A DNA stretch of 64,000 nt, taken from positions 384,001 to 448,000 of the forward strand of contig CBDBHR010000028.1 of NCBI GenBank assembly GCA_965205865.1, written 5' to 3'. Source of the stretch: a bacterium. GTDB taxonomy: Bacteria; SAR324; NAC60-12. Below are positions 28,679 through 62,601 of the stretch, piece by piece (position 1 is the stretch's first letter; each line of letters begins with the position of its first letter). The notes beneath the pieces are model-generated. The model saw nothing but the letters and a program-made list of their open reading frames with translations, was not told the DNA's origin and made no database searches. A program made the position numbers and the translations under genes.

Positions 28679-28718
28679 TCTCTCACGATTTTGTTTGACG
28701 GATGGGGTGGGAACCCTC
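28679..28718 (-). repeat. 36-bp hairpin element, copy 1 (fills most of the intergenic gap)
   Basis: gagg-gttcccaccccatccgtcaaacaaaatcgt-gagaga. Confidence 0.7.
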
Positions 28719-31407
28719 AGAATCCGTATTTCAGTCTGCGAGTCTCAAATGCGTCCTTGCCTCCTTCGAGAATTTCCTCAACCATCTCCCGTACCGGACG
28801 CGCATCGATCGAACCCATATGATTGGGGTCGATGTGAGCATTTCCTCCATCCGCCTCTCCCAGAGCAGTAAGCCCTAGGATCAACTCCGCGTCTCCAAGC
28901 ACCGGGATGTTGGCGTTGTGGGTGGAGAAGATGAACTGACGCCGGCGTTTCTCCTCCCGCATCCTGGGGACCACGCCTTGGGTGATGAAGCGGTTGTCGA
29001 GGTCGTCCTCCGGTTGATCCACGATCAAGGGAGCGTCCGATTCGAGCAGCAGGAGCAGCAGTACCGCGGTTGCTTTCTGTCCCGTCGAGAGGGCTTCGAG
29101 CGTCTGCCATGACGGTGGTTCGCCGGCAGGCGCCGTGTTGAGACGGATTGACGTGGTGGGTAATAACTCCAGTTCTTCAATGCGCATCAAGACCTCTGGA
29201 GATCCTTCGGCAAGACGTTTCGCTTGAGCCGGTGGAATTGCGTATGCCCGGTGAACGGCTTCAGCCCCCATCCTGCAACACTCGACGAAATGTGGCAGAG
29301 AAAACTCCTTCTTCTTAAGGGCATCAATCACCTCGAAGAGACGGCCTCCGATCTCGTCACGCAGCACCCCGAACAACGGTTCTCGATCACCCGCTGCGGC
29401 GACCTCCACCCGGACGCGGTCATGCAGATTTCTGCCGACATTCTTCGCTGCCCGGTCAAGGAGACGGAATTCCTCCGCCTTGAGGTCTTCCCACTCTGCG
29501 AGCAGCGTACGACGCCGTTCCGTGTACTCCTTATTCAAGCGCTGTAACAGGGACGCGCGTTCTCGCAGTGGGCGAAGGCCTTCGATTTCGCGTCGCAGAC
29601 GGATGAACTCCTCGCCGTCCACCGCCGACTTCCGCAGTTCACGCAGGATTCTCTCGTAACCGGTCTGTACTTCGCGCTTGCGCTCATTCCACCGGCTGCG
29701 GATCTCATCGATCCCGCTATCAGCTTGCGCAAGCGCTGCCTCGAATCGGCTCACCAACTCCTCGAGGTCGAGGCTCAGACGTTCAAAGACGTCATTGGCG
29801 GCCGCGAGAATTTCCTTGCCCGGTAGATCCTCAAGGGCCCTTGGCGATAAGAACACGCGGTCGATGGGGATCTCCTGGCGGAGGATCTCCAGACACTCAC
29901 GGAGTGGCTCCAGACGCTCGGGAATCGAACCTAGTACGCGCTCTTCGCGGACGAGGAGGCTCTGCTCACGCAGCCGGTCTTCGAGTCCTGCTTCTCGAAA
30001 GCGTTCAATCGTCTCTTCGAGTCCGGGGAGAGTCGCCAAGCGTTCTTCGATCTGTCCGAGTTCGGTGCTTACTTCCAGCATCGACCGTCCGGTCTTCTCC
30101 AGGTCCCGGCGTAAGTCCACTTTGCGCCTGGACAGCGACGAGTCGCGTTCGACAAAGCGATCGAGCAAGCGTGTGAGTTTTTCACGACTCCTGGTGAGCT
30201 CGGAGATTTCGTGCTGCCCGTACACCTCGACACGGGGGAGTATCTCTTCGGGGAGCAGGTTCGAGACCTGGCCGCTTTCCTCGCGAACCACCGGAGGGTT
30301 CGGGACTGTTCTTTCGATCCGGTACTGTCTATTTGTCGGGCGGTGGGAGCGGACAAGGAGCGAGACTTTTGTCCCGCCCCGGAGCACGTGGCGCACAATC
30401 CCCTGGTGGGCTTTGCTAGCCTCTTCTCCAATGGGATCTAATCCGAGTACGTACCTCAGACTCTCGATGACCGTCGACTTGCCCGCGCCTCGCCCACCAA
30501 TCAGCACGTTCAGGTTCGGGTTGAAGTGAAAAGCCACGCCGTCCAGAAATCCGCCTTGCCAGGTCAGCGAGATGAGTTCAGCATGTTCTTCAGGCGGGGG
30601 ATCGCCGTTCAGACGAATTCTTGATTCCGGATCGAGAAAAGCCTGCCGCAGGCCCTCGATGCCAACTTCGGACATCTTGATCCAGCACATGGCCGAAGGA
30701 TCTTCCAGGTCCTCGGAATTCACGACGTCCTTTGCGTTGACCACGGCCACCGCCAGATTATCCCCCGCTGCGTGGAGTCGGCGGTAATCGGCGTTCTTGT
30801 TTTCAACGATCTGTAACGCACTTCGGGGCAATTCCTTGACAGGCCCCGGAATCTGAATTGCGAGCAGGTCTTTGCTCTGCCATGCTTTGATCCGGGCCTT
30901 TCCATCAAGGACGCTGAACAAACCGCTGTTGTTGGTTGCGTGCGCGGCGATTGTGATGCCACCCTGTGCTCGGACTTTTTCAAGTATTTCGACGAATGAC
31001 AGGCTCGAAAGGTCCGAAGAGGACTCTGTCACGTAAATCCCAAAATCACCAAGATACCGTCCGAGTGTCTCTTCTTCGGTGTCTGGTGAATAGATACAAA
31101 GAACGTGAACGCCTTCAGAGGAGGTAAGTTCAAATCCTGGAAATATCGTGATTCGATAGCCAGTAGCAGCGTTGCGGAATGCTTCAACTCCACTCACGTT
31201 ATTGTGATCAGTGATCGCGAGCGCCGAGACCCCAATTTCGGCGGCTTTCGCGACAATGGCATTGGCGTGAGATTCGACATCGCCTGCAGTCTCTTTGCCT
31301 CGAAACGTTTCGTTGTAGTGGTGGGGATTCACTTGGAGAGAGCAACGGTGAAACTCCGCGCCTCTCGGTAACTTGCTTGATTTCTCACTACAGCCATTGA
31401 AATTCAC
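28717..31407 (-). CDS. PHP-domain + SMC-like ABC ATPase (TrlF/Ppl-like)
   Basis: AITDHN, GVHVL, IAAH; GGRGAGKS; LSTGQ, IVDQPEDDLDN; likely GTG start overlapping the helicase stop. Confidence 0.85.
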   Translation of the reverse strand: MNFNGCSEKSSKLPRGAEFHRCSLQVNPHHYNETFRGKETAGDVESHANAIVAKAAEIGVSALAITDHNNVSGVEAFRNAATGYRITIFPGFELTSSEGVHVLCIYSPDTEEETLGRYLGDFGIYVTESSSDLSSLSFVEILEKVRAQGGITIAAHATNNSGLFSVLDGKARIKAWQSKDLLAIQIPGPVKELPRSALQIVENKNADYRRLHAAGDNLAVAVVNAKDVVNSEDLEDPSAMCWIKMSEVGIEGLRQAFLDPESRIRLNGDPPPEEHAELISLTWQGGFLDGVAFHFNPNLNVLIGGRGAGKSTVIESLRYVLGLDPIGEEASKAHQGIVRHVLRGGTKVSLLVRSHRPTNRQYRIERTVPNPPVVREESGQVSNLLPEEILPRVEVYGQHEISELTRSREKLTRLLDRFVERDSSLSRRKVDLRRDLEKTGRSMLEVSTELGQIEERLATLPGLEETIERFREAGLEDRLREQSLLVREERVLGSIPERLEPLRECLEILRQEIPIDRVFLSPRALEDLPGKEILAAANDVFERLSLDLEELVSRFEAALAQADSGIDEIRSRWNERKREVQTGYERILRELRKSAVDGEEFIRLRREIEGLRPLRERASLLQRLNKEYTERRRTLLAEWEDLKAEEFRLLDRAAKNVGRNLHDRVRVEVAAAGDREPLFGVLRDEIGGRLFEVIDALKKKEFSLPHFVECCRMGAEAVHRAYAIPPAQAKRLAEGSPEVLMRIEELELLPTTSIRLNTAPAGEPPSWQTLEALSTGQKATAVLLLLLLESDAPLIVDQPEDDLDNRFITQGVVPRMREEKRRRQFIFSTHNANIPVLGDAELILGLTALGEADGGNAHIDPNHMGSIDARPVREMVEEILEGGKDAFETRRLKYGF

Positions 31408-34400
31408 GTTTTTCCTCCAAAAGGTGGCGTGTGCTCCCGCACTTGCATTGGTTGGGTCAGGGCGTTGACCTCTAGCCAATAGTGCTGCACCTTGGTGACC
31501 TGGTGCCAGGGAAAGCGGGCGGGATTACTGACCGGCTCCTGAAGTTCAGGCGTGCTCGCGCAGTTGGTGACCACGTAGAGCCAGTAGCAGTCGGGACGGT
31601 CCTCGGCGACGCGCCGTTCATTCGGCGTGAGCAGGATGGTGCCGGTAGTGGCGGAGAGCCCCTTGACCTCGATCAAACGCAGTTCTCCGGATTCCACGTC
31701 GAGACTGGTCACATCGTAGCCCAGGTTTTTCTCGTGCACGTCGTATACCTGTCTACCCCGGACCTTTTCGTGCTCCATGACCAGCCGCATGGCGATCATT
31801 TCGGTCTCGGCGCTGGGTCGCAGGCGTCGCACCTCCGGGGAGTCAGCTTCCGGATGGGGCAGAACCAGGATGCTGGCCAAACGCTGGACTCCTTGTAGTG
31901 TCAGCGCTCGCTGCTGCGCAAGTTCCTGCCGACGCCGGTCACGTCGCGCCAGTGCTTCGTCATGACGGGCTTCCGCTTGTGAGAGGCGTCCCTCGGCACC
32001 GGAGACCTGTCTCTGCAAATCTTCGGCAGCGCGGCCTATTTCCTGGTCAAGGCGTTGCAGTACTTCGGTCAAAGAGAGTTCGACGTGTTCCGCGATGCGT
32101 TCGACCTCGGACAGTCGTTCCTTACGCACCTCGTCGATGAACGGTATCAAGGCATGCTCGGTCAACCAGTTGGTAGCCTGCGAAAGAGAGGTGACGTCAG
32201 GCAGATCGCTCGCTGGAACTACGGCGGGACTGAGGTTTCCCAGAATGTCCGGATCCCTCAAACGGGGTTGGCGGCCATCCCTTAATTCCACGGTGAACAG
32301 CCGTTCGTGAATGACGTGTCCCAGGCCGTCTACGACCTGCGCCCGGTAGAAATCGAGGCGCGCCGGAGCTTCGTGCCCCAGGGAATGAAAACAGGCGCCA
32401 CTGGCAAAAGCGTCCCGGGCAAGATCAAGGCCGTGCCGACGAAGAGATTCGAACAGTGGATGACCCGGGGTAACCCATTCGAGGTTGTGCTCGTCTGCCG
32501 CGTCCCGGTCCGTCGACAGGCGCGGATAACGAGTGGCCAACTGCGGGAGTTTCCAACCCGGTTCACGCTCGTACTTCTTCAAACAGGACGGTATACGCCC
32601 CGGGTCGAAGGTATGCTCCAGACCCTCTACCGGTTTCAGATCCAACCGCGCATTCCGGGCGCCTTCCTTGATGAAACGAGCAATCGTTTCAGGTACGACG
32701 CGCCGTTCCTGCGCCCGGGCACGGCGCTCGGTGAGCATCTCGAGATCAAGCTTTTTGGTAGCCAAGCCTTCCAGAGCCGTCTGGCAAATCGTGCGGAAAT
32801 GACCTTCATCCACATCCTTCAGAAGCCGGTCTTCGAGGTCAGCGTCGCCCAGCTTGCCCGAATAGTATTCTCGCAGCACACGTTCCACGTGGGCGGACGG
32901 CAAGACCTCACCCACGACGTTGAAAACCGAGTCGTCATCGAGGGCGTCACGGATCTCCTGCAGCTTGGCCAAGAGGCGCTGGAGCACCTGTCCCTCGATG
33001 GTGTTGGTGGCAACGAAGTTGAAAATCAGGCAATCGTTCCGCTGTCCGTAACGGTGGATGCGGCCCATGCGCTGCTCGAGCCGGTTCGGGTTCCAGGGGA
33101 TGTCGTAGTTGAAGAGAATGTGACAGCATTGGAGGTTGATGCCTTCGCCAGCCGCCTCGGTAGCCACCAGGATCTGGATGACACCTTCGCGGAATTGCTG
33201 TTCGGCGTAGAGCCGGGTACCCGGTTCGTCTTGCGAGCCGGGTTTCATGCCACCATGGATACAGCCGACGCTGAAGCCCCAGGCTTTCAAATGCTCCATC
33301 AGATGGCCGAGGGTATCCTTGAACTCGGTGAAGAGCAGCAATCGCTGATCGGGACGATCAAAGAATCCCTCATTCCGCATGATCTCACGAAGACGTTTGA
33401 GTTTCGCTTCTCTGCCCGCGCCTTCGACTGCTTTCGCCTCTTCGGCCAGCACCCGGAGTTCGGTGATCTCTTCACGTACCTGATGGGCGTTGCCGGCCAG
33501 CGTGATAGCCTCCAGCAGACGCTCCAGACGCTCGCGCTCGGCGTCCTCCAGTTCCTCGAGATCTTCCGGATCAGGAAGGTCCGGTGGCGCTATTCGCACC
33601 AACTCTTGGGCGCGCTTGAGACCATCCTGTAAACGTCTCGCCCGGTTCTCGAGCGACCGCCGCATGGCGAAGGTACTCGAGGCAAGACGCCTTTGGTAGA
33701 GCGACATCAAGAAACCGACGGCTCGCGCTCGCGGATCATCTTCCTGCGCAGCGGCACGGGCGCTCTGGCGTTTCACGAACCGTGTGATTTGCTGGTAGAG
33801 TTCGAACTCGGGACCGTCGATGGTGAAAGCGGCAGTGCGCGGGATACGTTTGGTGAAGACCGGTTTGGCAGTCCATGTTCCGTCCTGCAGACGTTCCGGA
33901 AAATAAACCATCGCTTCCTTGGCGCGACGCAGGTAGAAGGGCGCTCGCCTCCGATTCATGGCCTCGCGGATAGATTTCACGTCGGCGTATGCGTCCCGGT
34001 CGAGAAGTTGCAGGAACAATGTGAAATTCCCGGGGTCGCCCTTGTGGGGCGTGGCGGTCAACAGAAGCAAGTGATCGGTACTGTCACGCAGCAATTCCCC
34101 CAGCTTGTAGCGCATACTCTTATGGGTCTCGTCACGGGCCGACATGCGGTGCGCCTCGTCGACGATCACCAGGTCCCAGTGCGCCTGTCGTAGTCCGGGC
34201 AAGATATTGGCGCGCTTAGCCAGGTCGAGCGAGGTGATGATCTGCTTATGCTCCAACCACTGGTTGACGCCGAACTGCTCGCGGATATCGCCGCCCTTTT
34301 GAACGAGGAATTTCTCGTCGAACTTTTCCTTCAGTTCTCGCTGCCACTGGAAGGTCAGGTTTGCGGGGCATACCACCAGGACACGTTCGACGAGACCACG

Positions 34401-34841
34401 AAGCTTGAGTTCACGGACCAGCAGGCCTGCCATGATGGTCTTACCCGCCCCCGCATCGTCGGCGAGCAGGAAGCGCACGTTGGGCAGCTTGAGGAGGTGC
34501 TCGTAGACCGCTTCGAGTTGATGGGGCAGAGGGTCCACGCGCGAGATGGAAAGCCCGAAATAGGGGTCGAACTCGTGGGCGATACCGAGTGCATAAGCCT
34601 GAAGACCGATTCGCAGAAGCCGTCCGTCGCCGTCGTAGGAAAGAGTGGAGTCAGCGATGCTCAGGTTCGAGATATCAGCCGACGTCAGTGTAACCCTTCG
34701 GAATCGTTCCGATTGCTGACCAACGAGACCGGCATCCCAGGTGCCGGATCCGTTCGTGCGCACGGTTTCCACTCGCATCGGTTCATTGAACTGCGGGCCA
34801 GTCAGAACCTGTCCTTCCCGGATGGGGCTTTCGGTATCCAA
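31404..34841 (-). CDS. SNF2-family helicase with C-terminal DUF3883 PD-(D/E)xK nuclease
   Basis: LADDAGAGKT, VDEAH, TATPH, EQRMGRIHRYGQ, GYDV...IEVK. Confidence 0.93.
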   Translation of the reverse strand: MDTESPIREGQVLTGPQFNEPMRVETVRTNGSGTWDAGLVGQQSERFRRVTLTSADISNLSIADSTLSYDGDGRLLRIGLQAYALGIAHEFDPYFGLSISRVDPLPHQLEAVYEHLLKLPNVRFLLADDAGAGKTIMAGLLVRELKLRGLVERVLVVCPANLTFQWQRELKEKFDEKFLVQKGGDIREQFGVNQWLEHKQIITSLDLAKRANILPGLRQAHWDLVIVDEAHRMSARDETHKSMRYKLGELLRDSTDHLLLLTATPHKGDPGNFTLFLQLLDRDAYADVKSIREAMNRRRAPFYLRRAKEAMVYFPERLQDGTWTAKPVFTKRIPRTAAFTIDGPEFELYQQITRFVKRQSARAAAQEDDPRARAVGFLMSLYQRRLASSTFAMRRSLENRARRLQDGLKRAQELVRIAPPDLPDPEDLEELEDAERERLERLLEAITLAGNAHQVREEITELRVLAEEAKAVEGAGREAKLKRLREIMRNEGFFDRPDQRLLLFTEFKDTLGHLMEHLKAWGFSVGCIHGGMKPGSQDEPGTRLYAEQQFREGVIQILVATEAAGEGINLQCCHILFNYDIPWNPNRLEQRMGRIHRYGQRNDCLIFNFVATNTIEGQVLQRLLAKLQEIRDALDDDSVFNVVGEVLPSAHVERVLREYYSGKLGDADLEDRLLKDVDEGHFRTICQTALEGLATKKLDLEMLTERRARAQERRVVPETIARFIKEGARNARLDLKPVEGLEHTFDPGRIPSCLKKYEREPGWKLPQLATRYPRLSTDRDAADEHNLEWVTPGHPLFESLRRHGLDLARDAFASGACFHSLGHEAPARLDFYRAQVVDGLGHVIHERLFTVELRDGRQPRLRDPDILGNLSPAVVPASDLPDVTSLSQATNWLTEHALIPFIDEVRKERLSEVERIAEHVELSLTEVLQRLDQEIGRAAEDLQRQVSGAEGRLSQAEARHDEALARRDRRRQELAQQRALTLQGVQRLASILVLPHPEADSPEVRRLRPSAETEMIAMRLVMEHEKVRGRQVYDVHEKNLGYDVTSLDVESGELRLIEVKGLSATTGTILLTPNERRVAEDRPDCYWLYVVTNCASTPELQEPVSNPARFPWHQVTKVQHYWLEVNALTQPMQVREHTPPFGGKT

Positions 34842-35182
34842 TGGAGCTTTCCTTTCCTCAGATCTTTATTTTCAAAAAGTTCAGGACCCAGATTCTTGTA
34901 AGAGAAATGAATCCCCTTCACAAAAAGGAGGGACAATATTACCAGGGAAATATAACACGGATTCTATCGGGTTAACAATCGGAAACCATTTAACGTTATT
35001 TTCCCAGGTCTGAAGGCCGAAGTCTGAGACAAAATGCTGGAAACAAGAAATAATTCTGCAACGTTAAGGATTGTAAGAACCCGTTTTGTCAAATAATACA
35101 TTTGGCTGTGATTGTGATCGCTTTCCGGGTCTACCAGGCTGCCGTCATTGCGCAAGAGAATAAGAGACTATGATACGAGAGA

Positions 35183-35540
35183 TCATTGGATGCGCAAGGG
35201 GCTGATATATTCGTTCTCTTCTGTGATGCATCCTTCCAAGTGCTCGAGCGCCTCCGGAGTCTCGAGAATAAGGCCGAGCAACGTGTTGGCGTTAGCGTGA
35301 GCGCACGCTGCCGGTATATCAGGCGCCCCGTACATGCCAAACGCACGCTTTCCTTCGGGGTGGAATTTGGCAAACTCTATCAACCGCCGGGCCTCCGCTG
35401 CGCTCCTGATACTTGGTAGGATCAGACATTGACAGCCGTTGTCCAGCAATCTCGTGATGAAATGTTGCTCCAAGGCAGGAAGGCGTACCATCGGCGTGAC
35501 ACCAGCAAGATGAGCATAATGGACGGTCTCCTCGACTCGA
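35183..35540 (-). pseudogene. HpcH/HpaI aldolase fragment
   Basis: AGVTPMVRLP...RLLDNG...AKFHPEGKR...LILETPEALE; both termini missing. Confidence 0.7.
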
Positions 35541-35574
35541 ACTCCCTTATCTCATCTCTACCCCTTTCCTTGTT

Positions 35575-35684
35575 AATGAGGCTGAAAGTTCGGGCTGACC
35601 CAAGGTGATGGCAATCCCTTCATCCCCTTCCGACGAGCCGTTCTCAGGGTGGAAAGGAGTCGTAAGACTCCCGACCTGCCCGAC
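35575..35684 (+). mobile_element. degenerate group II intron remnant (collapsed domain V, domain VI)
   Basis: GAGCCG|TTCTCAGGGTGGAAAGGAGTC-GTAA-GACTCCCGACCTGCCCGAC at 35635-35684 resembles group II 3' ends; upstream aatgaggctgaaagttcgggctgacc may derive from domain I. Confidence 0.55.
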
Positions 35685-37735: not shown

Positions 37736-39526
37736 CTATTTGCCCATTTCCCGCTTCAGGTCCTGGTCAATCCAAATGCGAGAGAATATGGTGTTACGGT
37801 CGCCCCATCCCAGATCTACTTCGCCGTTGTAGCCCTTGACCCACGGCTGATTCACGTTAAACCATGGAACCTTGGGGCTCCACACGAGAAAGTGGTTCCG
37901 CGCCAGGTATAGATCTATCTCTCTCACCAGCCTCTGCTGCTCCTCCACCGTGGCCGCGGCCTTGGCCGCGTCGAACATGGCATCGTAGACCGGGTCCCGA
38001 AGTCCAGTATAGTTCTGTTGCCGCCCTGCGCTCGAGTGGTACAAACTCACTGTATGCGTGGCCTCGGCATCAATGGCGGCGAGCCACAAAAACATACCTT
38101 CATAGGTAAGTTCTTTCAAAGCGGCATAAAAAGCAGGATGGTCCAGTACGTTCATCTCGATGTCGACGCCAATCGCATCGAAGTAGGTGGCAGCCAATTG
38201 CGGGTAGTCCAAATCAAAGGTATCTATGAGTAGAAAGTCGGTCTTGAATCGAGTGCCGTCTGCGCCACGAGGATACCCCGCCTCATCAAGGAGCTGCTCC
38301 GCCCTTTGCGGGTTATACGTGTACTCCTCCTTCACATCGTCCGGCCACTCGTCGAACGGAACGCTGTAGCCAACGTGCGCATCTCCTAGCAGCGTTTGCG
38401 GGGTTGCGCTTGCATAACCCTTGTAGAACGTGTTGTTAATTGTCTCGAGGTCGAGCGCCAGCTGCATTGCTATGCGGACATTGACGTCGTTGAAGGGAGG
38501 CTCCATGAGTTTGAACGAGATAGCATTTTCCGCTCGTTGAAAGAATTGCGTAAGCTCGAGCTCTGGGTTGCTTTTGCTAAGCGCGTCTGCCCGATCGATA
38601 GAATCTATCTGAGCGCCGCAGCCGCCCGGCAGACCGATGTAATCTATGCTGCCTGATCGCAATCCGGCATCAATTGTTGCCGTGTCACTCATGAATAGGG
38701 CCGTTAGCTCGTCGATGTAGGGCAGGCGGTTCTCCGGATACTTTTCGTCGAAGCGCCAGTAGTCAGGATTCTTGGTCCACGTGATAGAGCTGCCCTCGAC
38801 GGCGTCGGTGAGCATGTAGGGCCCGGTGCCGACCGAATTTCTCCAGTCCTGCAGGTCGCCATGTTCCTCGATTACCTCGGGCGGGTAAACCCAACTGGAG
38901 TGGTGGACGAGGAGCGTATGCAGTAGACCCGATTGTGGCTCGGTCGTCTTGAATACAACCGTGTACCGATCGGTAGCCGTTATCGACTCAAATGGTATGT
39001 CCTTGAGAGCCTGACTGGGTGAACCTCCGGCTGCGGTGAATTCGCCCATACCCACCATGCGGTGCCAGTTAAAAACTACGTCCTCGGCGGTCAATTCCCT
39101 TCCATTCATTGGTGCCTTATCAAACCAGCGAACGCCCTCACGGATGCGGAAGACATAGGTGTTCGGGTCTGGTTGCTCCCAGCTCTCAGCCAGCGCACCT
39201 CCGATGACTGATACGGGCACGTAGGTCTTTCTTAAACTGAACTGGTCCCGATCGATTTCCCACCTGGCGATGCCGAGCTTCTCGGTAACGCCGGCCTGGG
39301 TGGAACCAGAGAAGCCACCGAACCAGCTGTCAACCATGATAGTCTTGCAGCCTCGATTGGCGAACGTCAATGTCCCACCATACGCCGGCTCGGTCACCAT
39401 CTTGCCGGTGGTGGGATCTTTGACCATCTTGGCTGCCCAGACCTGGCCAGCCATGAAGACGCTTGCTCCCATGATGAGAGCCAGCAGGGTTGCGCTCAAT
39501 TTTGAGCTGCTTTTTAGATTAAACAT
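37736..39526 (-). CDS. ABC substrate-binding protein, family 5
   Basis: YGGTL, LAESWE, GTGPY; signal peptide after MFNLK (GGAG RBS); in-frame upstream starts at 39634 and 39733. Confidence 0.9.
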   Translation of the reverse strand: MFNLKSSSKLSATLLALIMGASVFMAGQVWAAKMVKDPTTGKMVTEPAYGGTLTFANRGCKTIMVDSWFGGFSGSTQAGVTEKLGIARWEIDRDQFSLRKTYVPVSVIGGALAESWEQPDPNTYVFRIREGVRWFDKAPMNGRELTAEDVVFNWHRMVGMGEFTAAGGSPSQALKDIPFESITATDRYTVVFKTTEPQSGLLHTLLVHHSSWVYPPEVIEEHGDLQDWRNSVGTGPYMLTDAVEGSSITWTKNPDYWRFDEKYPENRLPYIDELTALFMSDTATIDAGLRSGSIDYIGLPGGCGAQIDSIDRADALSKSNPELELTQFFQRAENAISFKLMEPPFNDVNVRIAMQLALDLETINNTFYKGYASATPQTLLGDAHVGYSVPFDEWPDDVKEEYTYNPQRAEQLLDEAGYPRGADGTRFKTDFLLIDTFDLDYPQLAATYFDAIGVDIEMNVLDHPAFYAALKELTYEGMFLWLAAIDAEATHTVSLYHSSAGRQQNYTGLRDPVYDAMFDAAKAAATVEEQQRLVREIDLYLARNHFLVWSPKVPWFNVNQPWVKGYNGEVDLGWGDRNTIFSRIWIDQDLKREMGK

Positions 39527-39572
39527 ACGAGATTCTCCGTTTGGATGTTTAAAAATATTAAGGATTGATTTG

Positions 39573-39729
39573 AAACCTGCCTTCATGCCCGAAAGCACGT
39601 TCTCGACGATTTCTCTACTTTTTTGACGGTTCAAGGTGCTCCTTTCTGCTTTTTGATTAAAAACAAGATTGCGGGTTGCTTTAAAACCTGCTTTTGTTCC
39701 CGAAAGCACGTTCTCGACGATTGCTCTAC
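39573..39729. repeat. two 46-bp direct repeats, 111-bp period, in the leader of the binding-protein gene
   Basis: 39573-39618 versus 39684-39729, 41/46 identical. Confidence 0.85.
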
Positions 39730-39915
39730 ACATTGGGTCTCCTTCATTTTCAAGTGATCAAAAAACCGATTCATTGCCTCCAGGATTGGGCAATGAACCA
39801 TAAACCGACGCACTCAGGCGCCGATGATTTTCCAAATTCCCCATTGCCGTTCCCGGAACGGGGAACGAGGGATCTTAGGGATCTCTCCCTGATGTCGAGA
39901 TAAGATAAGGGGGTA

Positions 39916-40010
39916 GAACTTGGGATTGGGGACTTGTGACTTGTTGCTTGGAACTTATTACTGGGAACTGGGAACTGGGAACTGGGAACTTATTGGAACT
40001 GGGAACTGGG
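39916..40010. repeat. degenerate heptamer tandem repeat (GAACTGG)n, about 13 units
   Basis: gaactgg/gaacttg/ggacttg units read directly. Confidence 0.85.
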
Positions 40011-40231
40011 TGTTTAAGATTACTCTCATATCCACCTTATTATCAAGGGATTTTTTAAAAAGATGATTCATTTAATAATTGAGTATTTTCTTATGGTTTT
40101 TAAAGAGTTTACGGACATTTGGGAAGATAAGAATAATTTGATTATTCACTCATCCCTGAAGCTCATTCAATCTAACCTGTAGCAGCAATCATTTTTTTTA
40201 AAAAATCGTAAATATTCAGGTCTCTGAAAAA

Positions 40232-40655
40232 CCCGTTTAGTTCAATATCATTAAAAAAGATTCCCTGGGAGGACCGATCGTTTTCAATTCCTCTCACGAT
40301 ATTGTTCAATCGATCGGGAACCTTCTCTTTCACTGAAACAACTTAATGATGGCTTAAATACAGCACAAAACAACGCAATGTCAACCCCCTGAGGTAAAAT
40401 AAATGCGGGATTCGCAAAAAAAACAAAAAATCAATAAATCTGCTCAAATCCGGGGACAGTCAGAAGCCGTTCAGTTCAATATCGTTTAAAAAATTCCCGG
40501 AGAGGATCCATCTTTTTCACGTCCTCCCACGATATTATTCAATCGATCAAGCGGGAACCCTCTCCTTCCTTAAAACAACAAGGCATAATTTTAACACTTA
40601 AATACGCAGGGTCAAGCCCCAAATGAAATAAATGCAGGATTCGTAAAAAAAACGA
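40232..40655 (-). repeat. two tandem diverged ~190-200 bp non-coding units (period ~235 bp), each with a sigma70-like promoter and a copy of the 36-bp element; candidate sRNAs
   Basis: shared ccgtt.agttcaatatc...cacgatatt.ttcaatcgatc...gtcaa.cccc...aaataaatgc.ggattcg.aaaaaaaac; minus strand TTGACC-16-TAAAAT with a TG extension in unit 2 and TTGACA in unit 1. Confidence 0.7.
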
Positions 40656-40658
40656 TAA

Positions 40659-40809
40659 GGAATGAAATTTAAATAAGTCAGAAGTATGGATACGCAAATT
40701 TAGGGGACAGGTAACAGCAGGAAAACAGTAGAGTTGGGATGCCGCTGTACATGTCCCCCAATTTTGCTCACACCATTGGAAGAATTACAGGTTATTTAAG
40801 GTTTGTTCC
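40659..40809. mobile_element. MITE family 2, copy A (151 bp, TAA target duplication)
   Basis: imperfect TIR ggaatgaaatttaaataa / ttatttaaggtttgttcc, TAA on both sides; closely similar copy at 49909. Confidence 0.8.
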
Positions 40810-40976
40810 TAAATCAAAAAATCAAGGAAATCCGCTTCTTTATGATTATGAGCCAAAAAGCAATTGTCCGCTCCACAGTCTCAGACCATTCCTGATCGCT
40901 TGAGTTGCTTGGATACATAAATCTCCTTTTAAAAAATGGAAATTAGTAAACATGCAATTTTTTATCCAAACAGCTT

Positions 40977-41480
40977 CTAAGAGGAGGAGGGTTCTAAATC
41001 GGACTGATTCTTCGTTTTTCCAAACATAGTGGATAGGATGAAAAAACAGATCCCGACGCTGATGAAACAATCTGCCAGATTATTCACGAAAAAACTGAAA
41101 TCATACCAACGGAAATGAAGAAAATCCGTCACTGAGCCAAAAATCGCCCGGTCAATCAAATTTCCCAACGCCCCCGGAATGATCAATACCAACGCCGTTT
41201 TCATGATACGGTCACTCTTTTTCCAATACCAAATCAGGTAATAGAGCATCCCCACCACCGCGATCGTCGAAATGGACAGCAGAAGTGGCAGGCGAACGGT
41301 TTCCGGCCAATCGGACATAAAACTGAAGCTCACGCCTTTGTTTTGTACCAGCGTCAATTCCAGAAAATTGGGCAGGATAGGGATCATGTGGTATGAATCG
41401 ACATGCTGGCGCACCCAAATTTTAGACCCTTGGTCCAGCAGCACCAGCAAACTGATTGCTAAGAACGCAATTCGCATCAA
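40977..41480 (-). CDS. lspA: lipoprotein signal peptidase II
   Basis: DQGSK, NKGVSFS, GALGNLIDR, VTDF, NLAD. Confidence 0.93.
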   Translation of the reverse strand: MMRIAFLAISLLVLLDQGSKIWVRQHVDSYHMIPILPNFLELTLVQNKGVSFSFMSDWPETVRLPLLLSISTIAVVGMLYYLIWYWKKSDRIMKTALVLIIPGALGNLIDRAIFGSVTDFLHFRWYDFSFFVNNLADCFISVGICFFILSTMFGKTKNQSDLEPSSS

Positions 41481-54897: not shown

Positions 54898-54920
54898 TTC
54901 TTGTATTTTCTTGAATGGGT

Positions 54921-56321
54921 TCATTGAAACAACTCCAGGTTCGCGTTTAAAATGTCATGAAACTCCCGGATTCGCTGGACGTAGCGCACGGGTTCTGAAC
55001 CCCGGGCATATCCTCTTTTCAGTGTTTTATAATATTTACGCTGTGATAAGAGCGGCAAGACAGTTTTCAGATCATGCCATTTGTTGGGATTCTTGCCAAA
55101 TTGTTTCGCCAGCGTCCGGGCATCATAGACATGCCCCATGCCTACATTGTAAGCTGCCAGAGCAAACAAAAGGCGATCGTCGCCTTGCACTTCTTGAGGA
55201 ATTCGATCAAATAATTGAGCAAGATACTTGGCTCCTCCCATAATGCTTTGCTCTACGTCCAAGCGGTTTTTAATGCCCAATTGTTTGGCCGTCTTCAGAG
55301 TCAACATCATCATCCCTCGTACTCCTGTCGGACTCTTGGCCCTGCTATTCCAATGAGATTCTTGATAGGCTTGCGCGGCCAAAAGGGTCCAAGGAAAATT
55401 GTGTTTTTCTGCCGCTTTTTTAAAAAGAGGTAACAAGGAAGGTAATCGCTCTGAAAGACGTTTGTGGAAGGTACGGATATCCACATAATCGAAGATTGGC
55501 AAATAGCTATAATAGCGTTCATACAATGCAGCAAGATGGTGGTTGGATTCATACTTCTCCAGCCAGCGGATGCTTGCCTCTTTCAGATCTTCGGCGCCAG
55601 GACGGATGATCCATGCGATTGGCAGAGCATCGGTGAGCGGAAATGCGATTTCCAATTCCGGGAAATAACGGCGATTGATTGCCACGATATTGGAATCCGC
55701 AACGACACATTCGAGTTCCTTTTTCCATACTTTTTCCAGCAGTATTTCCGTGGACATGTCTGTCACCGCCGTCCACTGAATTTCAGGCACCTCTTGTTGT
55801 AACTCATACAAACGTTCTTCATGACCACTGTCTTTGACGATGGTGATTTTGAAATTTGGCAATTCGTCGATGCTGCGCGGTATTTCTCCACCACGATGGC
55901 ATACTACCTGTTGCTGAACCTGGAAATAATCCGGTCCAAATAGATATTGAAGTTCCCTTTGTTCGATACGAGTCAATCCTGCCGCGGCAATATCCCCTGT
56001 TCCCTCTTTTATGGCTTCCAGGATTTCTGAGACACTATCCAGCACCTCGAACTGAGCGTTGACGCCTAAGTAGGCAGCAAAATCAGAGGCCAGGTCATAT
56101 TCAAATCCCGCCAGGCCGTCCTGTGCTTCATAATAAGTGGTGGAAGTATTGTGCGTCAGAACAACCAACACGCCTTGTTGACGAATCTTTTCGAGAGGCG
56201 AAAGTGGATCGGATTTTTGGAAAACATCGCATCCGGATGCTAGCACAACCGATAATCCGGCGAGACAAAGATACCACTTCATGAAACGCTCCTTGAGAGT
56301 CTTCGGGAAACGATATTTCAC
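54921..56321 (-). CDS. mltF: membrane-bound lytic murein transglycosylase F
   Basis: PBP domain plus YQESHW, GMMML, AAYNVG. Confidence 0.93.
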   Translation of the reverse strand: MKYRFPKTLKERFMKWYLCLAGLSVVLASGCDVFQKSDPLSPLEKIRQQGVLVVLTHNTSTTYYEAQDGLAGFEYDLASDFAAYLGVNAQFEVLDSVSEILEAIKEGTGDIAAAGLTRIEQRELQYLFGPDYFQVQQQVVCHRGGEIPRSIDELPNFKITIVKDSGHEERLYELQQEVPEIQWTAVTDMSTEILLEKVWKKELECVVADSNIVAINRRYFPELEIAFPLTDALPIAWIIRPGAEDLKEASIRWLEKYESNHHLAALYERYYSYLPIFDYVDIRTFHKRLSERLPSLLPLFKKAAEKHNFPWTLLAAQAYQESHWNSRAKSPTGVRGMMMLTLKTAKQLGIKNRLDVEQSIMGGAKYLAQLFDRIPQEVQGDDRLLFALAAYNVGMGHVYDARTLAKQFGKNPNKWHDLKTVLPLLSQRKYYKTLKRGYARGSEPVRYVQRIREFHDILNANLELFQ

Positions 56322-57475
56322 AACCGTCCGGGAGAGAGCATTGCTTCGCTGATACCCGCCTCAACCACATGTTTGGGAAAGCGGCGTTCCCGGATAAGGG
56401 AAGCGCAACAGACTGCCATGATTGGAGAAGTTTTGATCCCATATCCACCTTGTCCCACTAACCAGAAAAAATTTTGCACTTGGGGGTCGAATCCTAAGAC
56501 GGGAATACGGTCGCGGACGAAAGAGCGCAATCCGGCCCATTTGTGGCTGACATGTTGAATACGAAAATTAATAGCGGCATGGATTCTGTCGATACCAATC
56601 GCGATATCCAGATCATCCGGCCTGGCATCGTGGGGAGCCACGGGAGTCTCGTCGGCAGGAGAACCGAGAAATTTTCCGGAATCGGGCTTGAAATAGAATT
56701 TTTCGTCAATGTCTATAATCATGGGCCACTTGTCGATTTGGTATACTTCGGGAGGGTTCCCACCCGGTCGATGGCACAATACTGTGGGAGGATTGAACAA
56801 GAATGCCGTTCTTTTTTTGGGGACAAGACCGATTGATTTTGCCCCTGCTAATGTTCCAATGGTCTCTCCCCAGGCACCGGCTGCATTGACAATTAATTTG
56901 CAGGAAAATTCTTCTTTTTCAGTTATCACCAGCCAACCCTCTTGCAAAGATTGCAAGGCAATCACTTTGACATTGGTCGTCAGAGTCCCTCCCTGTTGCC
57001 TCATTGAATGCAGAAATCCTTGATGAAGGGCATGCACGTCAAGGTCCTTCGAATGCGGGTCATAGATGCCTGCCATTGCATATCCCGGTGTCAAAGCAGG
57101 AAAAAGGGAAAATAAATCGCTTTCTTGAAGTTGTTCGACTTTCCTTCCAGCCGTATTGATCCTACGAATTTCACTGTCCATTTGCTCTTTTTGATCTGCA
57201 CGAATAAGAAAGAGGACACCCCTGTCATTCAATAGAGGAAATTCACTGAACCCTTCAGGCGGAGACTGGAGAAATGGTTTGCTCAACTTGGCGAGTCTGC
57301 GAATCACGGAATTGCCGTAAAATTCCGTGAAAAGAGCCGCTGATCTACCCGTCGAATGATAACCAGGGTGCCCTTCCATTTCAAGAACCATCACTTTATG
57401 ATCCTTTGCCAGTTCAAATGCAGCCGAAGTCCCCGCAATGCCTGCGCCAATGACGATGATGTCGATATCTGTCAT
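56318..57475 (-). CDS. FAD-dependent oxidoreductase (D-amino acid dehydrogenase-like) with a 12-aa in-frame insertion
   Basis: GAGIAG, HSTGRSAA, WAGLRSF, GQGGYG. Confidence 0.9.
   Translation of the reverse strand: MTDIDIIVIGAGIAGTSAAFELAKDHKVMVLEMEGHPGYHSTGRSAALFTEFYGNSVIRRLAKLSKPFLQSPPEGFSEFPLLNDRGVLFLIRADQKEQMDSEIRRINTAGRKVEQLQESDLFSLFPALTPGYAMAGIYDPHSKDLDVHALHQGFLHSMRQQGGTLTTNVKVIALQSLQEGWLVITEKEEFSCKLIVNAAGAWGETIGTLAGAKSIGLVPKKRTAFLFNPPTVLCHRPGGNPPEVYQIDKWPMIIDIDEKFYFKPDSGKFLGSPADETPVAPHDARPDDLDIAIGIDRIHAAINFRIQHVSHKWAGLRSFVRDRIPVLGFDPQVQNFFWLVGQGGYGIKTSPIMAVCCASLIRERRFPKHVVEAGISEAMLSPGRL
56752..56791 (+). repeat. 36-bp hairpin element inside a CDS (in frame)
   Basis: gggagg-gttcccacccggtcgatggcacaatactgt-gggagg. 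Confidence 0.8.
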
Positions 57476-57590
57476 GATCGATTTTTATGCGTATTTGAAG
57501 GTGGCCTTGATTCTTTTTTCAATTTAAGGAGCGAGGTCACAACGTCGAGCTCTCCAATGCACGAAAACTCTGCGGAAACATCCGGAAAAT

Positions 57591-57623
57591 CCCTTCCCCT
57601 TGCGGGACGGGTCAGGCGAGGGG
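57591..57623. repeat. REP-like GC-rich hairpin, diverged copy 3
   Basis: cccttccccttgcgggacgggtcaggcgagggg. Confidence 0.5.
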
Positions 57624-57656
57624 ATATGAAATTTACCCTGCAACCGCGCGGGTTGT

Positions 57657-57696
57657 GAGGGTTCCCACCCCCATCGATCGGACAATATGTGGGAAT
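57657..57696 (+). repeat. 36-bp hairpin element, intergenic copy
   Basis: gagg-gttcccacccccatcgatcggacaatatgt-gggaat. Confidence 0.75.
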
Positions 57697-57716
57697 GCGC
57701 AATACAACAATAAATC

Positions 57717-58943
57717 TCAGTTGATCGTTAAAAGTTCTGTGATTTCCGAAAATCCGTTCTTATGAGCGATCATGAGAGCGGTCAGCCCCTTAAAATTTCT
57801 GGATTTGGTATCAATGCCTTTGTCAATGAGAAGTTGTACTGATCCAATATGGTGCTTGGCCACGGCAAGGGTGAGGGCGTTGTCGCCATCTTTTTGTTGG
57901 GCATTGATATCGGCACCCGCTTCGAGAAGCAGAGTAAGAATTTTCGGATGATATCCGGATGCCGCCAACATCAGCGCGGTCCAGCCTTCATTGTCTTTGG
58001 CATTCACATCGGCTCCCAGTTCGATCAGGGCACCCGCAGTATCCAGATGTCCCCGGACAGTTGCCAGCATCAAAGCAGTAACCCCGTCTTTCCTTTTCGC
58101 GTCGATGTCAGCTCCCCGTTCAACCAGCAGACGGACAATTGCGCTATCTCCCAAAAAACCTGCGAGAATGAGAGGAGTCCATTGCTCTTCACCGGGAGAA
58201 TTGACATCCAGTCCCTGCACCAGCAGTTTTTGGACTTTTTCAGAATCACCTTTCAGGATGGCATTGGCAACATCTTGCCATCCTTTGGCATCGGTATCCG
58301 AGCCGGAGGAAGTTTGCCACGCAGTGACATAATAATTCGGATTTGACAAGAGATTGATGATATCAAGATGGCCTTGTTCGATTGCCAGGATGAGAGCTGT
58401 TTTGTTGTTGGTGCTTTGCCGGAGGGGGTCAGCTCCTTGAGAGAGAAGAAGACTCACCATTTCTCTTTGATCACTGTAAGCCGCGATCATCAAAGCCGTC
58501 CAGCCGGTATTGTCCACGGATTCGAGATCTGCTCCTTTCTCCAAAAGCAGCCGGGCAATCTCTATGTTTCCCAGCATCGCAGCAGCCATCAAAGCCGTCC
58601 ACCCGTCTACACTTTTTTGATGCGGATCAACAGGATATCGCAGCAGCAATTCCACCATCTGAGCATGTCCCCGAAATGCGGAAATTATCAAGGGAGTCCA
58701 CCCATTTTCATCTCTGACATTCGCATTGGCGCCTCGACTGAGGAATTGGGTAGCAAGTCGAGTATCATTGTTCTCCGCCGCAGACAACAACGTTCTATCA
58801 CTTTGACTCCGGACGGGGGCAAGCATCACCCCAAAAAATGTAAATGCAAGAATCGGCAGGATGGCATAGTGGAGATGAAACAGCATGAGGGGTATCTGGG
58901 TAGAGAAAGAATGGTCATTCCTCCAGATTATCAAGGAGTTCAA
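57717..58943 (-). CDS. ankyrin-repeat protein, probably exported
   Basis: about 10 GWTALM/TPL...GADVN repeats after a hydrophobic N-terminus; start uncertain. Confidence 0.92.
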   Translation of the reverse strand: MNSLIIWRNDHSFSTQIPLMLFHLHYAILPILAFTFFGVMLAPVRSQSDRTLLSAAENNDTRLATQFLSRGANANVRDENGWTPLIISAFRGHAQMVELLLRYPVDPHQKSVDGWTALMAAAMLGNIEIARLLLEKGADLESVDNTGWTALMIAAYSDQREMVSLLLSQGADPLRQSTNNKTALILAIEQGHLDIINLLSNPNYYVTAWQTSSGSDTDAKGWQDVANAILKGDSEKVQKLLVQGLDVNSPGEEQWTPLILAGFLGDSAIVRLLVERGADIDAKRKDGVTALMLATVRGHLDTAGALIELGADVNAKDNEGWTALMLAASGYHPKILTLLLEAGADINAQQKDGDNALTLAVAKHHIGSVQLLIDKGIDTKSRNFKGLTALMIAHKNGFSEITELLTIN

Positions 58944-59057
58944 GAAAGTGACACGTTCAGTTTACACAACAAATCTTAAAAAGGCGAAATTATATTCAGG
59001 CTGATTGTCGGGAGAGTCTCGGTAACTTTATAAAAAGCATATGGCGCAACCGCCACT

Positions 59058-60515: not shown

Positions 60516-60664
60516 CCGTGTCTGACTTATATTGATTCAGCATCATGCTGAAGGAAATAATCATTGGGATGAAAAAATATTCTCTACCTTCTCCCAACAA
60601 TCATGCTGTAAATATTCTATGCAAATGATTTGCCATAATCTCTTACATTTACAAAATGATTACA

Positions 60665-61765
60665 TCAGACGGGATTGTATTTTTCCAGAAATGATTGTTT
60701 GAAGCCGGCAAACTGCTTGTTTTCGATAGCAACACGGGCTTTTTTGACCAAATTCAGATAGAAATATAGGTTATGATACGTGTTTAAACGCACAGAAAGG
60801 ATTTCCTTGGAAATGTAAAGGTGCCTCAAATAAGCTCTTGAATAGTGCCGGCATACATAACAGGCGCAGTCGGGATCAGCAGGTAACGAATCTTCTCGGT
60901 ATTGCGCCTGTTTGACGGAAATTTTTCCACGAGACGTGAACAAACAACCATTGCGGGCATTACGGGTTGGTAACACGCAATCGAACATGTCAATTCCGTG
61001 GTCAATCGCTTCCAGCAAATCTTCCGGCTCGCCAATTCCCATCACGTAGCGTGGTTGCTTCTCCGGAAGCAAAGGTGTGATTGTTTCCAGTATGCCATAC
61101 ATTTCATCCTTAGATTCCCCAACACTCAATCCTCCAATAGCATAGCCATCGAAGCCGATTTCCAACAACTCTTGCAAACTGCGTTTGCGCAAATCAAGAT
61201 GCAATCCTCCCTGGACAATACCAAACAACGCATGGCTGTTTTTACGAGCATCTTTACAGCGTTTCGCCCAAGATGAGGTCAGGGATAGCGATTTTTCGAT
61301 TTCTGCATAGGAGGCTGGAAGTCGTAAACATTCGTCAAAGCACATCATTATGTCAGATCCCAGATTCTCCTGAATGGCAATCGATTTTTCCGGAGTGAGT
61401 AAAATTGTGTTCCCGTTGAGATGGTTCTGAAAAACCACACCCTCTTCAGAAAGTTTGCGCAACTTCGCCAAAGAGAAGACTTGGAATCCTCCGCTATCAG
61501 TCAGGATGGGGTATGGCCAGCCCATGAATTGGTGCAATCCTCCTAATTGACGCACGACCTCATCTCCCGGACGCAGATGCAAGTGATAGGCATTTCCTAA
61601 AATAATTGATGCCCCTACCTCTCTCAATTCCTCCGGGGTCATAGCTCTGACAGTTCCAAGTGTACCGACGGGCATGAAAACAGGGGTGGAAATGTGTCCC
61701 CGGGTTGTTTGGATACGGCCTTTTCTTGCAAGACCGATATGCTCTTGCTGTTCAAACGAAATCAT
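60665..61765 (-). CDS. tgt: tRNA-guanine transglycosylase
   Basis: TPVFMPVGT, TDSGGFQ, FDCVLPTR. Confidence 0.97.
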   Translation of the reverse strand: MISFEQQEHIGLARKGRIQTTRGHISTPVFMPVGTLGTVRAMTPEELREVGASIILGNAYHLHLRPGDEVVRQLGGLHQFMGWPYPILTDSGGFQVFSLAKLRKLSEEGVVFQNHLNGNTILLTPEKSIAIQENLGSDIMMCFDECLRLPASYAEIEKSLSLTSSWAKRCKDARKNSHALFGIVQGGLHLDLRKRSLQELLEIGFDGYAIGGLSVGESKDEMYGILETITPLLPEKQPRYVMGIGEPEDLLEAIDHGIDMFDCVLPTRNARNGCLFTSRGKISVKQAQYREDSLPADPDCACYVCRHYSRAYLRHLYISKEILSVRLNTYHNLYFYLNLVKKARVAIENKQFAGFKQSFLEKYNPV

Positions 61766-61815
61766 AAATGATCAAGGCAGGTGGTTTCTGGTGCTTCCTC
61801 TTACAAAACAACGCC

Positions 61816-62601
61816 TTATTTGCCGGTGAAAGACTGAGTTGAGAAGACGGTTGAAGAATCTGAGGGTTCCCACCCGGTCGATCGAACAATACCGGAGGAG
61901 GAACAGGGTGTTTGCAGGTCTTGCCACTGTCCCCGGACGAGTACTTGCGCGGGACGGTATTCGGCCTTGTAGTTCATTTTGTAAGAATCTTTGACCCAAA
62001 ATCCCAGATAGAGCCAGGGAATCTTTAATTCCCGGCAGTATTCGATTTCATAAAGAATTGAATAGACTCCCAAGCGACGGAATGCGAAATCAGGGTGGAA
62101 GATGAAATAAACAGAACTGATAGCGGACGGCAAGCGATCAATCCAACTCACTCCGACGAGAAGATCTCCCAAGTAATAATGCGCCATCTCCGTATCTACC
62201 GGGCTTTCAATCAAAAAATTTTGAAATTCCCAAAAATCCGGCTTCTCGGAATTGTGATGCCATGCCACTTGATATTTCTGGTAAAGCTCAAAGCTCTCCC
62301 GGGAAAAATCAACAGGGTAATGTTCGATGCAAAGATCCTGGTTTTTTTGCCATGTCCGGCGTTGGCTCTTTGTCATGCGAAACTGCTTGACATCCACTCG
62401 AAGTGGGATGCAGAGGTGGCAATTGTTGCAGATAGGATGGTACACGGAACAACCGCTGCGCCGAAAACCATGGTTGAGTAATTTTTCGTAGGTTGCACCA
62501 GGGAGCGTTTCGGTTTCGAATGTGAGGTTCTCCCAAATACCCTTGTTTCGATAAGGACAAGGGCCATTGTTGGTGTGATAAAGTTTAAAATTCAGTGTCA
62601 T
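61816..62601 (-). CDS. bpt: ATE1-like aminoacyl-tRNA protein transferase (Bpt/arginyltransferase)
   Basis: CPY, GFRRSG, PICNNC, SQRR, YLGFWV, MNYK. Confidence 0.85.
   Translation of the reverse strand: MTLNFKLYHTNNGPCPYRNKGIWENLTFETETLPGATYEKLLNHGFRRSGCSVYHPICNNCHLCIPLRVDVKQFRMTKSQRRTWQKNQDLCIEHYPVDFSRESFELYQKYQVAWHHNSEKPDFWEFQNFLIESPVDTEMAHYYLGDLLVGVSWIDRLPSAISSVYFIFHPDFAFRRLGVYSILYEIEYCRELKIPWLYLGFWVKDSYKMNYKAEYRPAQVLVRGQWQDLQTPCSSSGIVRSTGWEPSDSSTVFSTQSFTGK
61862..61901 (+). repeat. 36-bp hairpin element inside the 3' end of bpt (in frame)
   Basis: gagg-gttcccacccggtcgatcgaacaataccggag-gagg; the two GAGG are exactly 36 nt apart. Confidence 0.75.

Follow-up and report, generated by a model that had tools for sequence, protein, structure and literature searches.

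We describe a short repeated element in a 64,000-nt stretch of DNA from a bacterium of the SAR324 lineage (GCA_965205865.1, contig CBDBHR010000028.1, forward-strand positions 384,001 to 448,000; hereafter called the window, with positions counted from its first letter). The element is 36 nt long and stands directly 3' of the tetranucleotide GAGG at four separate places. At two of them it lies in frame inside a protein-coding gene, where comparison with homologues points to insertion, and at a third it fills the junction between two genes of an operon. A homologous segment is part of a longer leader unit found before genes for ABC-transporter binding proteins. On balance we favor the reading that the window holds four members of a target-specific, lineage-restricted family of interspersed 36-bp insertions.

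Copies of the element and their target

The initial annotation had recorded six copies of one element in the window. All six were confirmed at those positions by alignment, with a mean column identity of 67% and 17 invariant columns in the six-way alignment. A profile built from the six recovers exactly these copies in the 64-kb window with nhmmer E values of 2.5e-13 to 1.9e-10, and the seventh-best profile match has an E value of 0.98. A degenerate 19-base pattern matched 4 of the 6 copies when 0.00 matches were expected from 100 shuffles. A looser pattern with 16 free positions, giving 37 matches against 23 expected, was uninformative and was superseded by the profile search and the tighter pattern. 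What did not stand is the idea that the six are of one kind: four are solo copies of 36 nt, whereas those at 40.29 and 40.52 kb each form part of a longer unit and are called leader copies here.

28679-28714, minus strand: solo copy c1, 36 nt directly 3' of GAGG at 28715-28718
56756-56791, plus strand: solo copy c4, 36 nt 3' of GAGG at 56752-56755
57661-57696, plus strand: solo copy c5, 36 nt 3' of GAGG at 57657-57660
61866-61901, plus strand: solo copy c6, 36 nt 3' of GAGG at 61862-61865
40.29 and 40.52 kb, minus strand: leader copies c2 and c3, a tandem pair between lspA and an SBP_bac_5 gene

The 36-nt solo sequence opens with GTTCCC and closes with the purine tract GGGAGG or a variant of it. 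The described layout of a 30-nt core followed by a purine-rich 6-mer is present in five copies, and the copy at 40290-40325 has a 4-nt deletion. Relative to the other copies, c5 carries one 1-nt insertion and one 1-nt deletion. Insertion at a Shine-Dalgarno-like GAGG had also been proposed, and GAGG indeed stands immediately 5' of all four solo copies (left flanks CTGAGG, GGGAGG, GTGAGG and CTGAGG), one of these tetranucleotides resembling a Shine-Dalgarno sequence. There are 517 GAGG sites in the window, both strands counted. Because the bases 5' of the left GAGG differ between the sites and those before the right purine tract are conserved in all copies, including the leaders, we take the left GAGG to be the target and assign the right one to the element. 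GAGG is found on both sides in c4 and c6, and not in c1 or c5.

It had further been claimed that the element is tolerated in coding sequences on account of a length that is a multiple of three. This agrees with the content of the solo copies, three of which (c4, c5 and c6) are free of stop codons in all six frames, compared with 9.1% of random 40-mers of the window (4535/50000), a comparison in which the three copies share descent and are not independent trials. The leader copies contain stops.

Insertions in two protein-coding genes

56318-57475, minus strand: FAD-dependent oxidoreductase of the DAO family, DauA-like (Pfam; D-arginine dehydrogenase 3nyc, E 8e-91)
61816-62601, minus strand: bpt-type aminoacyl-tRNA protein transferase with ATE_N and ATE_C (Pfam); carries c6

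Copy c4 lies antisense and in frame inside the FAD dehydrogenase gene and encodes 12 extra residues. In the search for DAO homologues 8000 candidates were scored and the best 120 were listed, and 13 were aligned, comprising the nearest ten or so and three named distant ones. The 12-residue segment is missing from 12 of these 13, down to 50% identity, including a protein that is 83% identical and 373 aa long compared with 385 aa (P0002). The same 12 residues, looked for in distant orthologues, were thus not seen there. The only one of the 13 with the insert, P0001, is 97% identical and was independently assembled. When exactly 36 nt after the GAGG were deleted by script, the gap columns between the FAD enzyme and P0002 fell from 12 to 0, both proteins then had 373 aa, and no stop was created. 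Removal of the segment therefore restores colinearity, as the initial annotation had stated for this gene. The two prolines after the gap, encoded on the opposite strand by the target GGGAGG, are retained in the insert-free homologues, which argues that the target existed before the insertion. In P0001, 3 of the 12 insert residues differ from those of the window in a protein that is 97% identical as a whole. Because of this difference, and because the insert is common to both proteins, it appears to evolve under little constraint and to predate the split of the two strains.

The AlphaFold (AF2) model of the FAD enzyme has a mean predicted local distance difference test (pLDDT) value of 87.7, and its sole segment below 50, residues 233-241, is inside the insert. 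The insert is modelled in the loop following strand 218-228, and the solved DauA structure (3nyc) shows a 13-residue gap at that position. Judging from the model, the insert would be tolerated in a surface loop of the dehydrogenase.

Copy c6 is likewise antisense and in frame, and it encodes part of the non-conserved C-terminal tail at the 3' end of bpt, as had been noted. The bpt search yielded 546 proteins at E <=0.001, of which the best 120 were listed and 11 were aligned. P0122, the nearest among the matches listed (80% identical over 90% of the query, 249 versus 261 aa), has exactly 12 residues fewer in the tail. Deletion of exactly 36 nt after the GAGG again takes the gap columns from 12 to 0, with 249/249 aa and no stop created. 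The C-terminal tails of the remaining ten aligned homologues are too variable to inform. Here the insert appears to be tolerated in the variable tail.

The insertions in the FAD gene and bpt are read in different frames of the same element strand, and both host proteins retain full-length family matches. Orthologues with empty sites were accordingly found for both genes, namely the 12 of 13 for the FAD enzyme and the nearest listed homologue for bpt, and the two intragenic 36-nt segments are true insertions.

The leader unit

40433-40647, minus strand: leader unit A, ~215 nt, nhmmer E 4.5e-65; element-homologous segment at 40523-40562
40203-40418, minus strand: leader unit B, in tandem and more decayed, E 4e-66; element-homologous segment at 40290-40325, with the 4-nt deletion
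37736-39733, minus strand: SBP_bac_5 ABC-transporter binding protein (Pfam), downstream of units A and B

One genome per species, from 185,579 species, was scanned with the 19-base pattern. Two loci matched (L001 and L002), both of them leader units and both in one metagenome-assembled genome (MAG), OZ242383.1. They align with the tandem pair of the window over ~215 nt, with a mean column identity of 78% and nhmmer E values of 4e-65 to 4e-71. A profile search over 8 kb of sequence from the MAG loci found the two leader copies only and no solo copy. The search for further copies that had been suggested was therefore productive in part: the window profile finds the six copies only, and outside the window there are the two leader units of this one MAG.

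A conserved GGGGGTTGAC box stands at the start of the leader unit. Only unit A has a sigma-70-type site that passes the promoter scan (TTGACC, 16 nt, TAAAAT, with TG); L001 and L002 do not pass. The 36-mer is homologous to the 5' arm of the unit, which continues past the element-homologous segment into a 3' arm. RNAalifold pairs this 3' arm with the element through 30 pairs, 2 of which have compensatory changes among four sequences only. The leader profile covers the solo copies only at positions 86-147; three of the four passed, and c5 was not among the matches. Rfam gave no match at the gathering score over the whole window, and with E values of up to 10 allowed over 39700-41000 the matches were at chance level, the best of them being to a microRNA family (E 0.12, 22 bits against a gathering score of 61).

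The MAG units end ~15-20 nt before an ATG, that of an SBP_bac_5 gene in L001 and that of a Peripla_BP_4 gene in L002. In OZ242383.1 the leader unit precedes non-homologous ABC-transporter binding-protein genes. The SBP_bac_5 protein of the window is 43% identical to the L001 protein encoded directly after the leader unit, and ~700 nt of AT-rich sequence lie between the leader pair of the window and its SBP_bac_5 gene. The true start of this gene is probably near 39526, the open reading frame (ORF) call at 39733 being over-extended by ~70 codons when compared to the L001 protein.

Several other features of this region were recorded. A small ORF of 15-17 codons is found in three of the four leader units (window 40539-40586, minus strand; L001 2007-2060, minus strand; L002 2007-2060, minus strand). 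In these units it begins close to the predicted start of transcription, and a TGA within the element-homologous segment terminates it. Compared with the MAG copies, the 15-codon ORF of unit A shows an in-frame 6-nt deletion, and unit B has lost the ATG. The differences are mostly non-synonymous, and the ORF could be a leader peptide or could be due to chance. A tandem 7-nt array (39960-40010, 6.9 copies, 82% matches) lies ~200 nt downstream of unit B, and on the minus strand its unit equals the first seven bases of the 36-nt element, GTTCCCA. For the octamer GGTTCCCA, 7 occurrences were counted in the window compared to 3.0 expected. At 39570-39730 on the minus strand, just upstream of the probable start of the SBP_bac_5 gene, a stretch of ~40 nt is repeated twice, ~118 nt apart. 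Divergently upstream of the leader unit, L001 carries at 2943-3552 (plus strand) a Gp49-like (DUF891) and HTH_3 pair in the layout of a HigB/HigA-type toxin-antitoxin system.

Relations among the copies

Pairwise identity is 0.83-0.97 between leader copies, 0.70-0.88 between solo copies and 0.70-0.81 between a solo and a leader copy, with c4 and c6 at 0.88. After GTTCCC the solo copies continue with ACCC and three of the four leader copies with ACTT or GCTT; unit B is deleted there. The TGA triplets that close two sense frames in the leaders fall in this region and in the next block. Because the ACCC state and the identities set them apart from the leaders, the solo copies look like a lineage of their own, with other solo copies or an unseen variant of the leader as their parents, and not like fresh copies of the units in the window. 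The solo copies diverge by 12-30%. Since they differ to this extent, and since the FAD insert is common to the 97%-identical relative, the insertions do not appear to be recent, and nothing indicates current activity.

The operon junction, the intergenic copy and their neighborhood

27437-28672, minus strand: Schlafen-AlbA2 / HATPase_c_4 gene, start ATG 28672, ribosome-binding region now apparently supplied by c1

Copy c1 fills the junction between the stop of a gene for a 920-aa PHP-AAA (Ppl/TrlF-like) protein and ATG 28672 of the Schlafen-AlbA2 gene. The stop of the upstream ORF, TGA at 28717-28719, overlaps the target GAGG. With c1 removed, this GAGG would fall 6 nt before ATG 28672, which from the sequence would be a standard operon junction, and its former spacing to the ATG is now occupied by the 3' end of the element itself, GAGAGA. 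The target thus looks like the Shine-Dalgarno sequence of the downstream gene, which the purine end of the element would replace at the same spacing. The succession of stop, GAGG, element, purine tract, 6 nt and ATG is similar to that of MIRU repeats and is seen at c1 only; the other three solo copies differ. For an empty site of c1, the 4-kb gene pair was compared with plasmid records, and among the 43 records none matched more than 4% of the query or extended over the junction.

One copy had been placed in a defense island, and c1, at 28.7 kb, is within a GC-rich island of this kind (GC 0.54-0.60, compared with 0.41-0.50 outside). The island (16805-34841) carries an Hma (helicase-methylase-ATPase) defense system:

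16805-19579: HmaC
23324-26296: HmaB
31404-34841: HmaA

Interleaved with the Hma genes are two NsnB/AriA/GajA-like ATPases, a PIN protein, an HEC-01A-like fragment, and the Ppl-like PHP-AAA and Schlafen-AlbA2 genes. Two short ORFs at 26604-27461 (minus strand) resemble gene fragments. In the one of 183 aa only the first ~140 positions of the HEC-01A ATPase model were matched, and the one of 96 aa matches no more than the final ~35 positions of NOV_C. Both point to decay or rearrangement within the defense island.

Copy c5 occupies the intergenic space that separates the FAD dehydrogenase gene, with its start at 57475, from an ankyrin-repeat gene, with its stop at 57717, and is antisense to both genes. 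It lies together with c4 and c6 within 5.2 kb. The product of the ankyrin gene (57717-58943, minus strand), which adjoins the FAD dehydrogenase gene, is a 408-aa protein made almost entirely of ankyrin repeats (Ank_2, E 2e-81). Among named relatives of the lineage the nearest are free-living SAR324-cluster MAGs, and in that setting such a protein is unusual.

Proposed explanation and alternatives

Each solo copy stands 3' of a pre-existing GAGG and carries a GAGG-like purine end of its own. Because it ends in this tract, an insertion regenerates the sequence behind which it landed. At an operon junction a Shine-Dalgarno-like sequence then remains at the original spacing, and inside genes 12 codons are added, an insert that proteins tolerate because c4, c5 and c6 are free of stops whatever the frame. 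We propose that the leader is the probable source of the solo family, which is probably a micro-insertion family similar to REP, Rickettsia palindromic element (RPE) and MIRU repeats. Spread would have taken place by a target-specific cut-and-insert reaction, the enzyme being supplied in trans from elsewhere. In transposition of the HUH/IS200-IS605/RAYT type, the element is placed 3' of a fixed tetranucleotide without any duplication. The geometry of the solo copies may be closest to this single-strand type, with a fixed tetranucleotide 5' and a similar one at the 3' end of the element, and we hold this enzyme class with much less confidence than the insertion family itself. The solo copies are probably without function and are tolerated passengers.

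A number of observations weigh against such a family. The scan of one genome per species, a collection which evidently does not contain the source genome because four window copies match the 19-base pattern, gave no solo copy outside the window. When the bpt tail with the insert peptide (40 residues) was used as a query, in a search of one frame that required several shared 5-mers and covered proteins of 143-457 aa, the only candidate was the protein of the window itself. Pfam detected no transposase, recombinase, HUH or reverse-transcriptase domain in the 52 ORF translations of the window, so the transposase or recombinase for which a check had been advised is missing from this set. Thus, of the short mobile GAGG-targeting element first envisaged, the true insertions at GAGG stand, and mobility by a dedicated enzyme, with none in the window, remains conjectural. 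The element has no terminal inverted repeats, and its orientation is mixed, one solo copy being sense and three antisense with respect to the local genes. With four events, the GAGG could instead be a 4-bp target duplication, and the boundaries of c1 and c5 are those suggested by similarity to the other copies.

The secondary structure also belongs on this side. The internal TCCCAC/GTGGGA inverted repeat that had been described is present, and pairing is possible in 90.6% of cells compared with 48-59% in slid controls. It consists of only 6 bp across a loop of 18-20 nt. A compensatory change was found in none of the 6 stem pairs, the RNA folds of the six copies were no better than shuffles (z -0.47 to +0.79), and neither were the DNA folds computed for either strand of the four solo copies (z -0.86 to +0.22). 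The name of hairpin element given in the initial annotation is therefore not supported by energy or covariation, and HUH-type systems normally require a hairpin.

If no dedicated enzyme took part, a GAGG-bounded segment of the leader may have been copied into the four sites by microhomology template switching or repair, the source being possibly an abundant leader transcript or its gene. We regard such templated insertion as rather unlikely. It would account for the leader segment being itself bracketed by GAGG-like tetranucleotides, for the lack of an enzyme gene in the window and for three of the four solo copies lying inside 5.2 kb. To the right of c4 the likeness to the leader goes on past the element, with a profile match to position 147, but this likeness sits in conserved coding sequence and may be due to chance. 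A microhomology of 4 nt is very little for four events with identical boundaries. Moreover, the ACCC state of the solo copies, in place of ACTT or GCTT, is absent from all four leader copies, and the solo-leader identity of 0.70-0.81 against 0.88 for c4 and c6 suggests descent from a solo copy or an unseen master. On the other hand, the element may be a selected RNA or DNA motif, either a ribosome-binding or translation-enhancing piece or a protein site around the central TCGATCGA palindrome. In this case the leader RNA, an abundant one, would pair with the FAD, bpt and intergenic transcripts at their antisense copies and tie these genes to transporter expression. The conservation of the leader (~78% mean column identity over two genomes and four loci) and its predicted long hairpin with the element as 5' arm are consistent with selection. 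Copy c1 is exactly where a ribosome-binding site is needed, and three of the four solo copies run antisense to the transcripts that contain them and are hence complementary to the leader RNA. However, the solo copies do not have the 3' arm and cannot form the leader structure, no Rfam family was matched, and the insert is disordered in the protein model. Evolution is also fast for a selected motif, with 3 of 12 insert residues differing in a 97%-identical protein and the copies differing by 12-30%. A selected motif thus seems quite improbable to us.

We give hardly any credence to the view that the segments are not insertions at all, being ancestral pieces lost in the relatives or an artefact of assembly. 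There is only one close comparator for bpt, but the segment is missing from the solved DauA and from 12 of the 13 DAO homologues, whose identity goes down to 50%. The same DNA stands at six unrelated loci, and an independently assembled 97%-identical protein has the insert. Other candidates were considered and dropped on inspection of the sequence: a CRISPR repeat or tracrRNA (no array and no cas genes), an integron attC core (the junction does not fit G/TTRRRY), a diversity-generating retroelement (no reverse transcriptase), a tRNA-derived piece, and a DDE-type MITE (no terminal inverted repeats).

Returning to the insertion family, a bolder version of it is a long shot. Here no self-contained insertion module smaller than the element would yet be known from bacteria; its 36 nt would be a piece of a highly expressed transporter-gene leader that is neutral at ribosome-binding sites and open in six frames, moves in a single-strand (HUH-like) or RNA-templated way and wires genes to the transporter through antisense pairing. 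If this were true, the replacement GAGG would make insertion invisible to selection at ribosome-binding sites, and movement would need no terminal repeats.

Comparison with known systems

Published sources describe several families for comparison. REPs are 20-40 bp long with a GTAG or CGTC tetranucleotide tag, are found within ORFs in several species and can supply stop codons to flanking genes from their ends, MITEs are defined by 70-300 bp with terminal inverted repeats of 15-30 bp, and RPEs insert in frame in Rickettsia genes (PMC3733652). For MIRUs, insertion is at start codons and expression changes little (PMC12548453). The Coxiella elements QMITE1 and QMITE2 overlap ORFs, lengthen proteins in frame at the C-terminus, and bear promoters or yield small RNAs (PMC5896051). 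Groups of reused promoters before unrelated genes are described in prokaryotes (PMC3575422).

The element is similar to REP and RAYT-mobilised REPIN sequences in that it is short and dispersed, has a conserved tetranucleotide at one end and has some copies inside ORFs. Its 36 nt, a length set by the 12-residue gaps and by the gap-free alignments after removal, falls in the 20-40 bp range. A stop is supplied at the flank as in REPs, here the TGA from the flank of c1, and two copies are intragenic. Unlike in REPs, the tag is GAGG in all four solo copies instead of GTAG or CGTC, and the palindrome is of 6 bp and energetically not significant. Half of the solo copies are intragenic, there are no doublets, and the 52 ORF translations of the window include no RAYT gene. 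The element falls outside the MITE definition with its 36 nt and a sole, internal inverted repeat of 6 bp.

RPEs are several times longer than 36 nt and clearly palindromic. The analogy with RPEs that had been drawn is therefore valid for behavior, not for class: 2 of the 4 solo copies are in frame in functional protein genes and add a tolerated peptide, but the element is 36 nt long with no significant palindrome. The host differs as well, Rickettsia being an obligate intracellular alphaproteobacterium and the proteins of the window being nearest, among the matches listed, to proteins of SAR324-cluster MAGs. With MIRUs the element shares the presence of a short repeat at a gene start in an operon with downstream expression preserved, and c1 appears to fit. 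MIRUs, however, include a small coupled ORF, no 12-codon MIRU inserts in enzymes are reported, and their target and sequence are unrelated. The Coxiella QMITEs are also small non-autonomous repeats that overlap ORFs and give in-frame C-terminal extensions, but they are of 150-400 bp with terminal inverted repeats and direct repeats that vary in sequence, compared with 36 bp, no terminal inverted repeats and a fixed GAGG here. The ~215-nt unit before non-homologous SBP_bac_5 and Peripla_BP_4 genes, in two genomes, resembles reused or mobile promoters. Unlike them, its internal 36-nt piece is also dispersed alone, including into coding sequence. As for IS200/IS605, subterminal hairpins at both ends and a TnpA (HUH) protein were not found, the window having one weak internal repeat per element and no HUH domain. 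Insertion in that group is 3' of a fixed tetra- or pentanucleotide with no duplication; all four solo copies lie directly 3' of GAGG, and here non-duplication is inseparable from a 4-bp duplication.

In a literature search that was only loosely aimed at SAR324, none of the papers listed mentions this lineage, which is a thin basis for calling such an element unreported there. To our knowledge, Rickettsia, Coxiella and a few REP families supply most known cases of short repeats in frame in working genes. Here the phenomenon is seen in a free-living SAR324-like lineage, with a length of only 36 bp and a fixed Shine-Dalgarno-like GAGG target, both protein insertions were verified against empty sites, and the leader link provides a concrete candidate source sequence. 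If many copies exist genome-wide, the family would be a compact natural system for learning how minimal an insertion substrate can be, how insertions become neutral at ribosome-binding sites and how 12-residue loops are tolerated in enzymes; if only the present copies exist, it would be a curiosity of local sequence copying. As a whole, the element shares the behavior of the REP, RPE, MIRU and QMITE families and fails their defining features.

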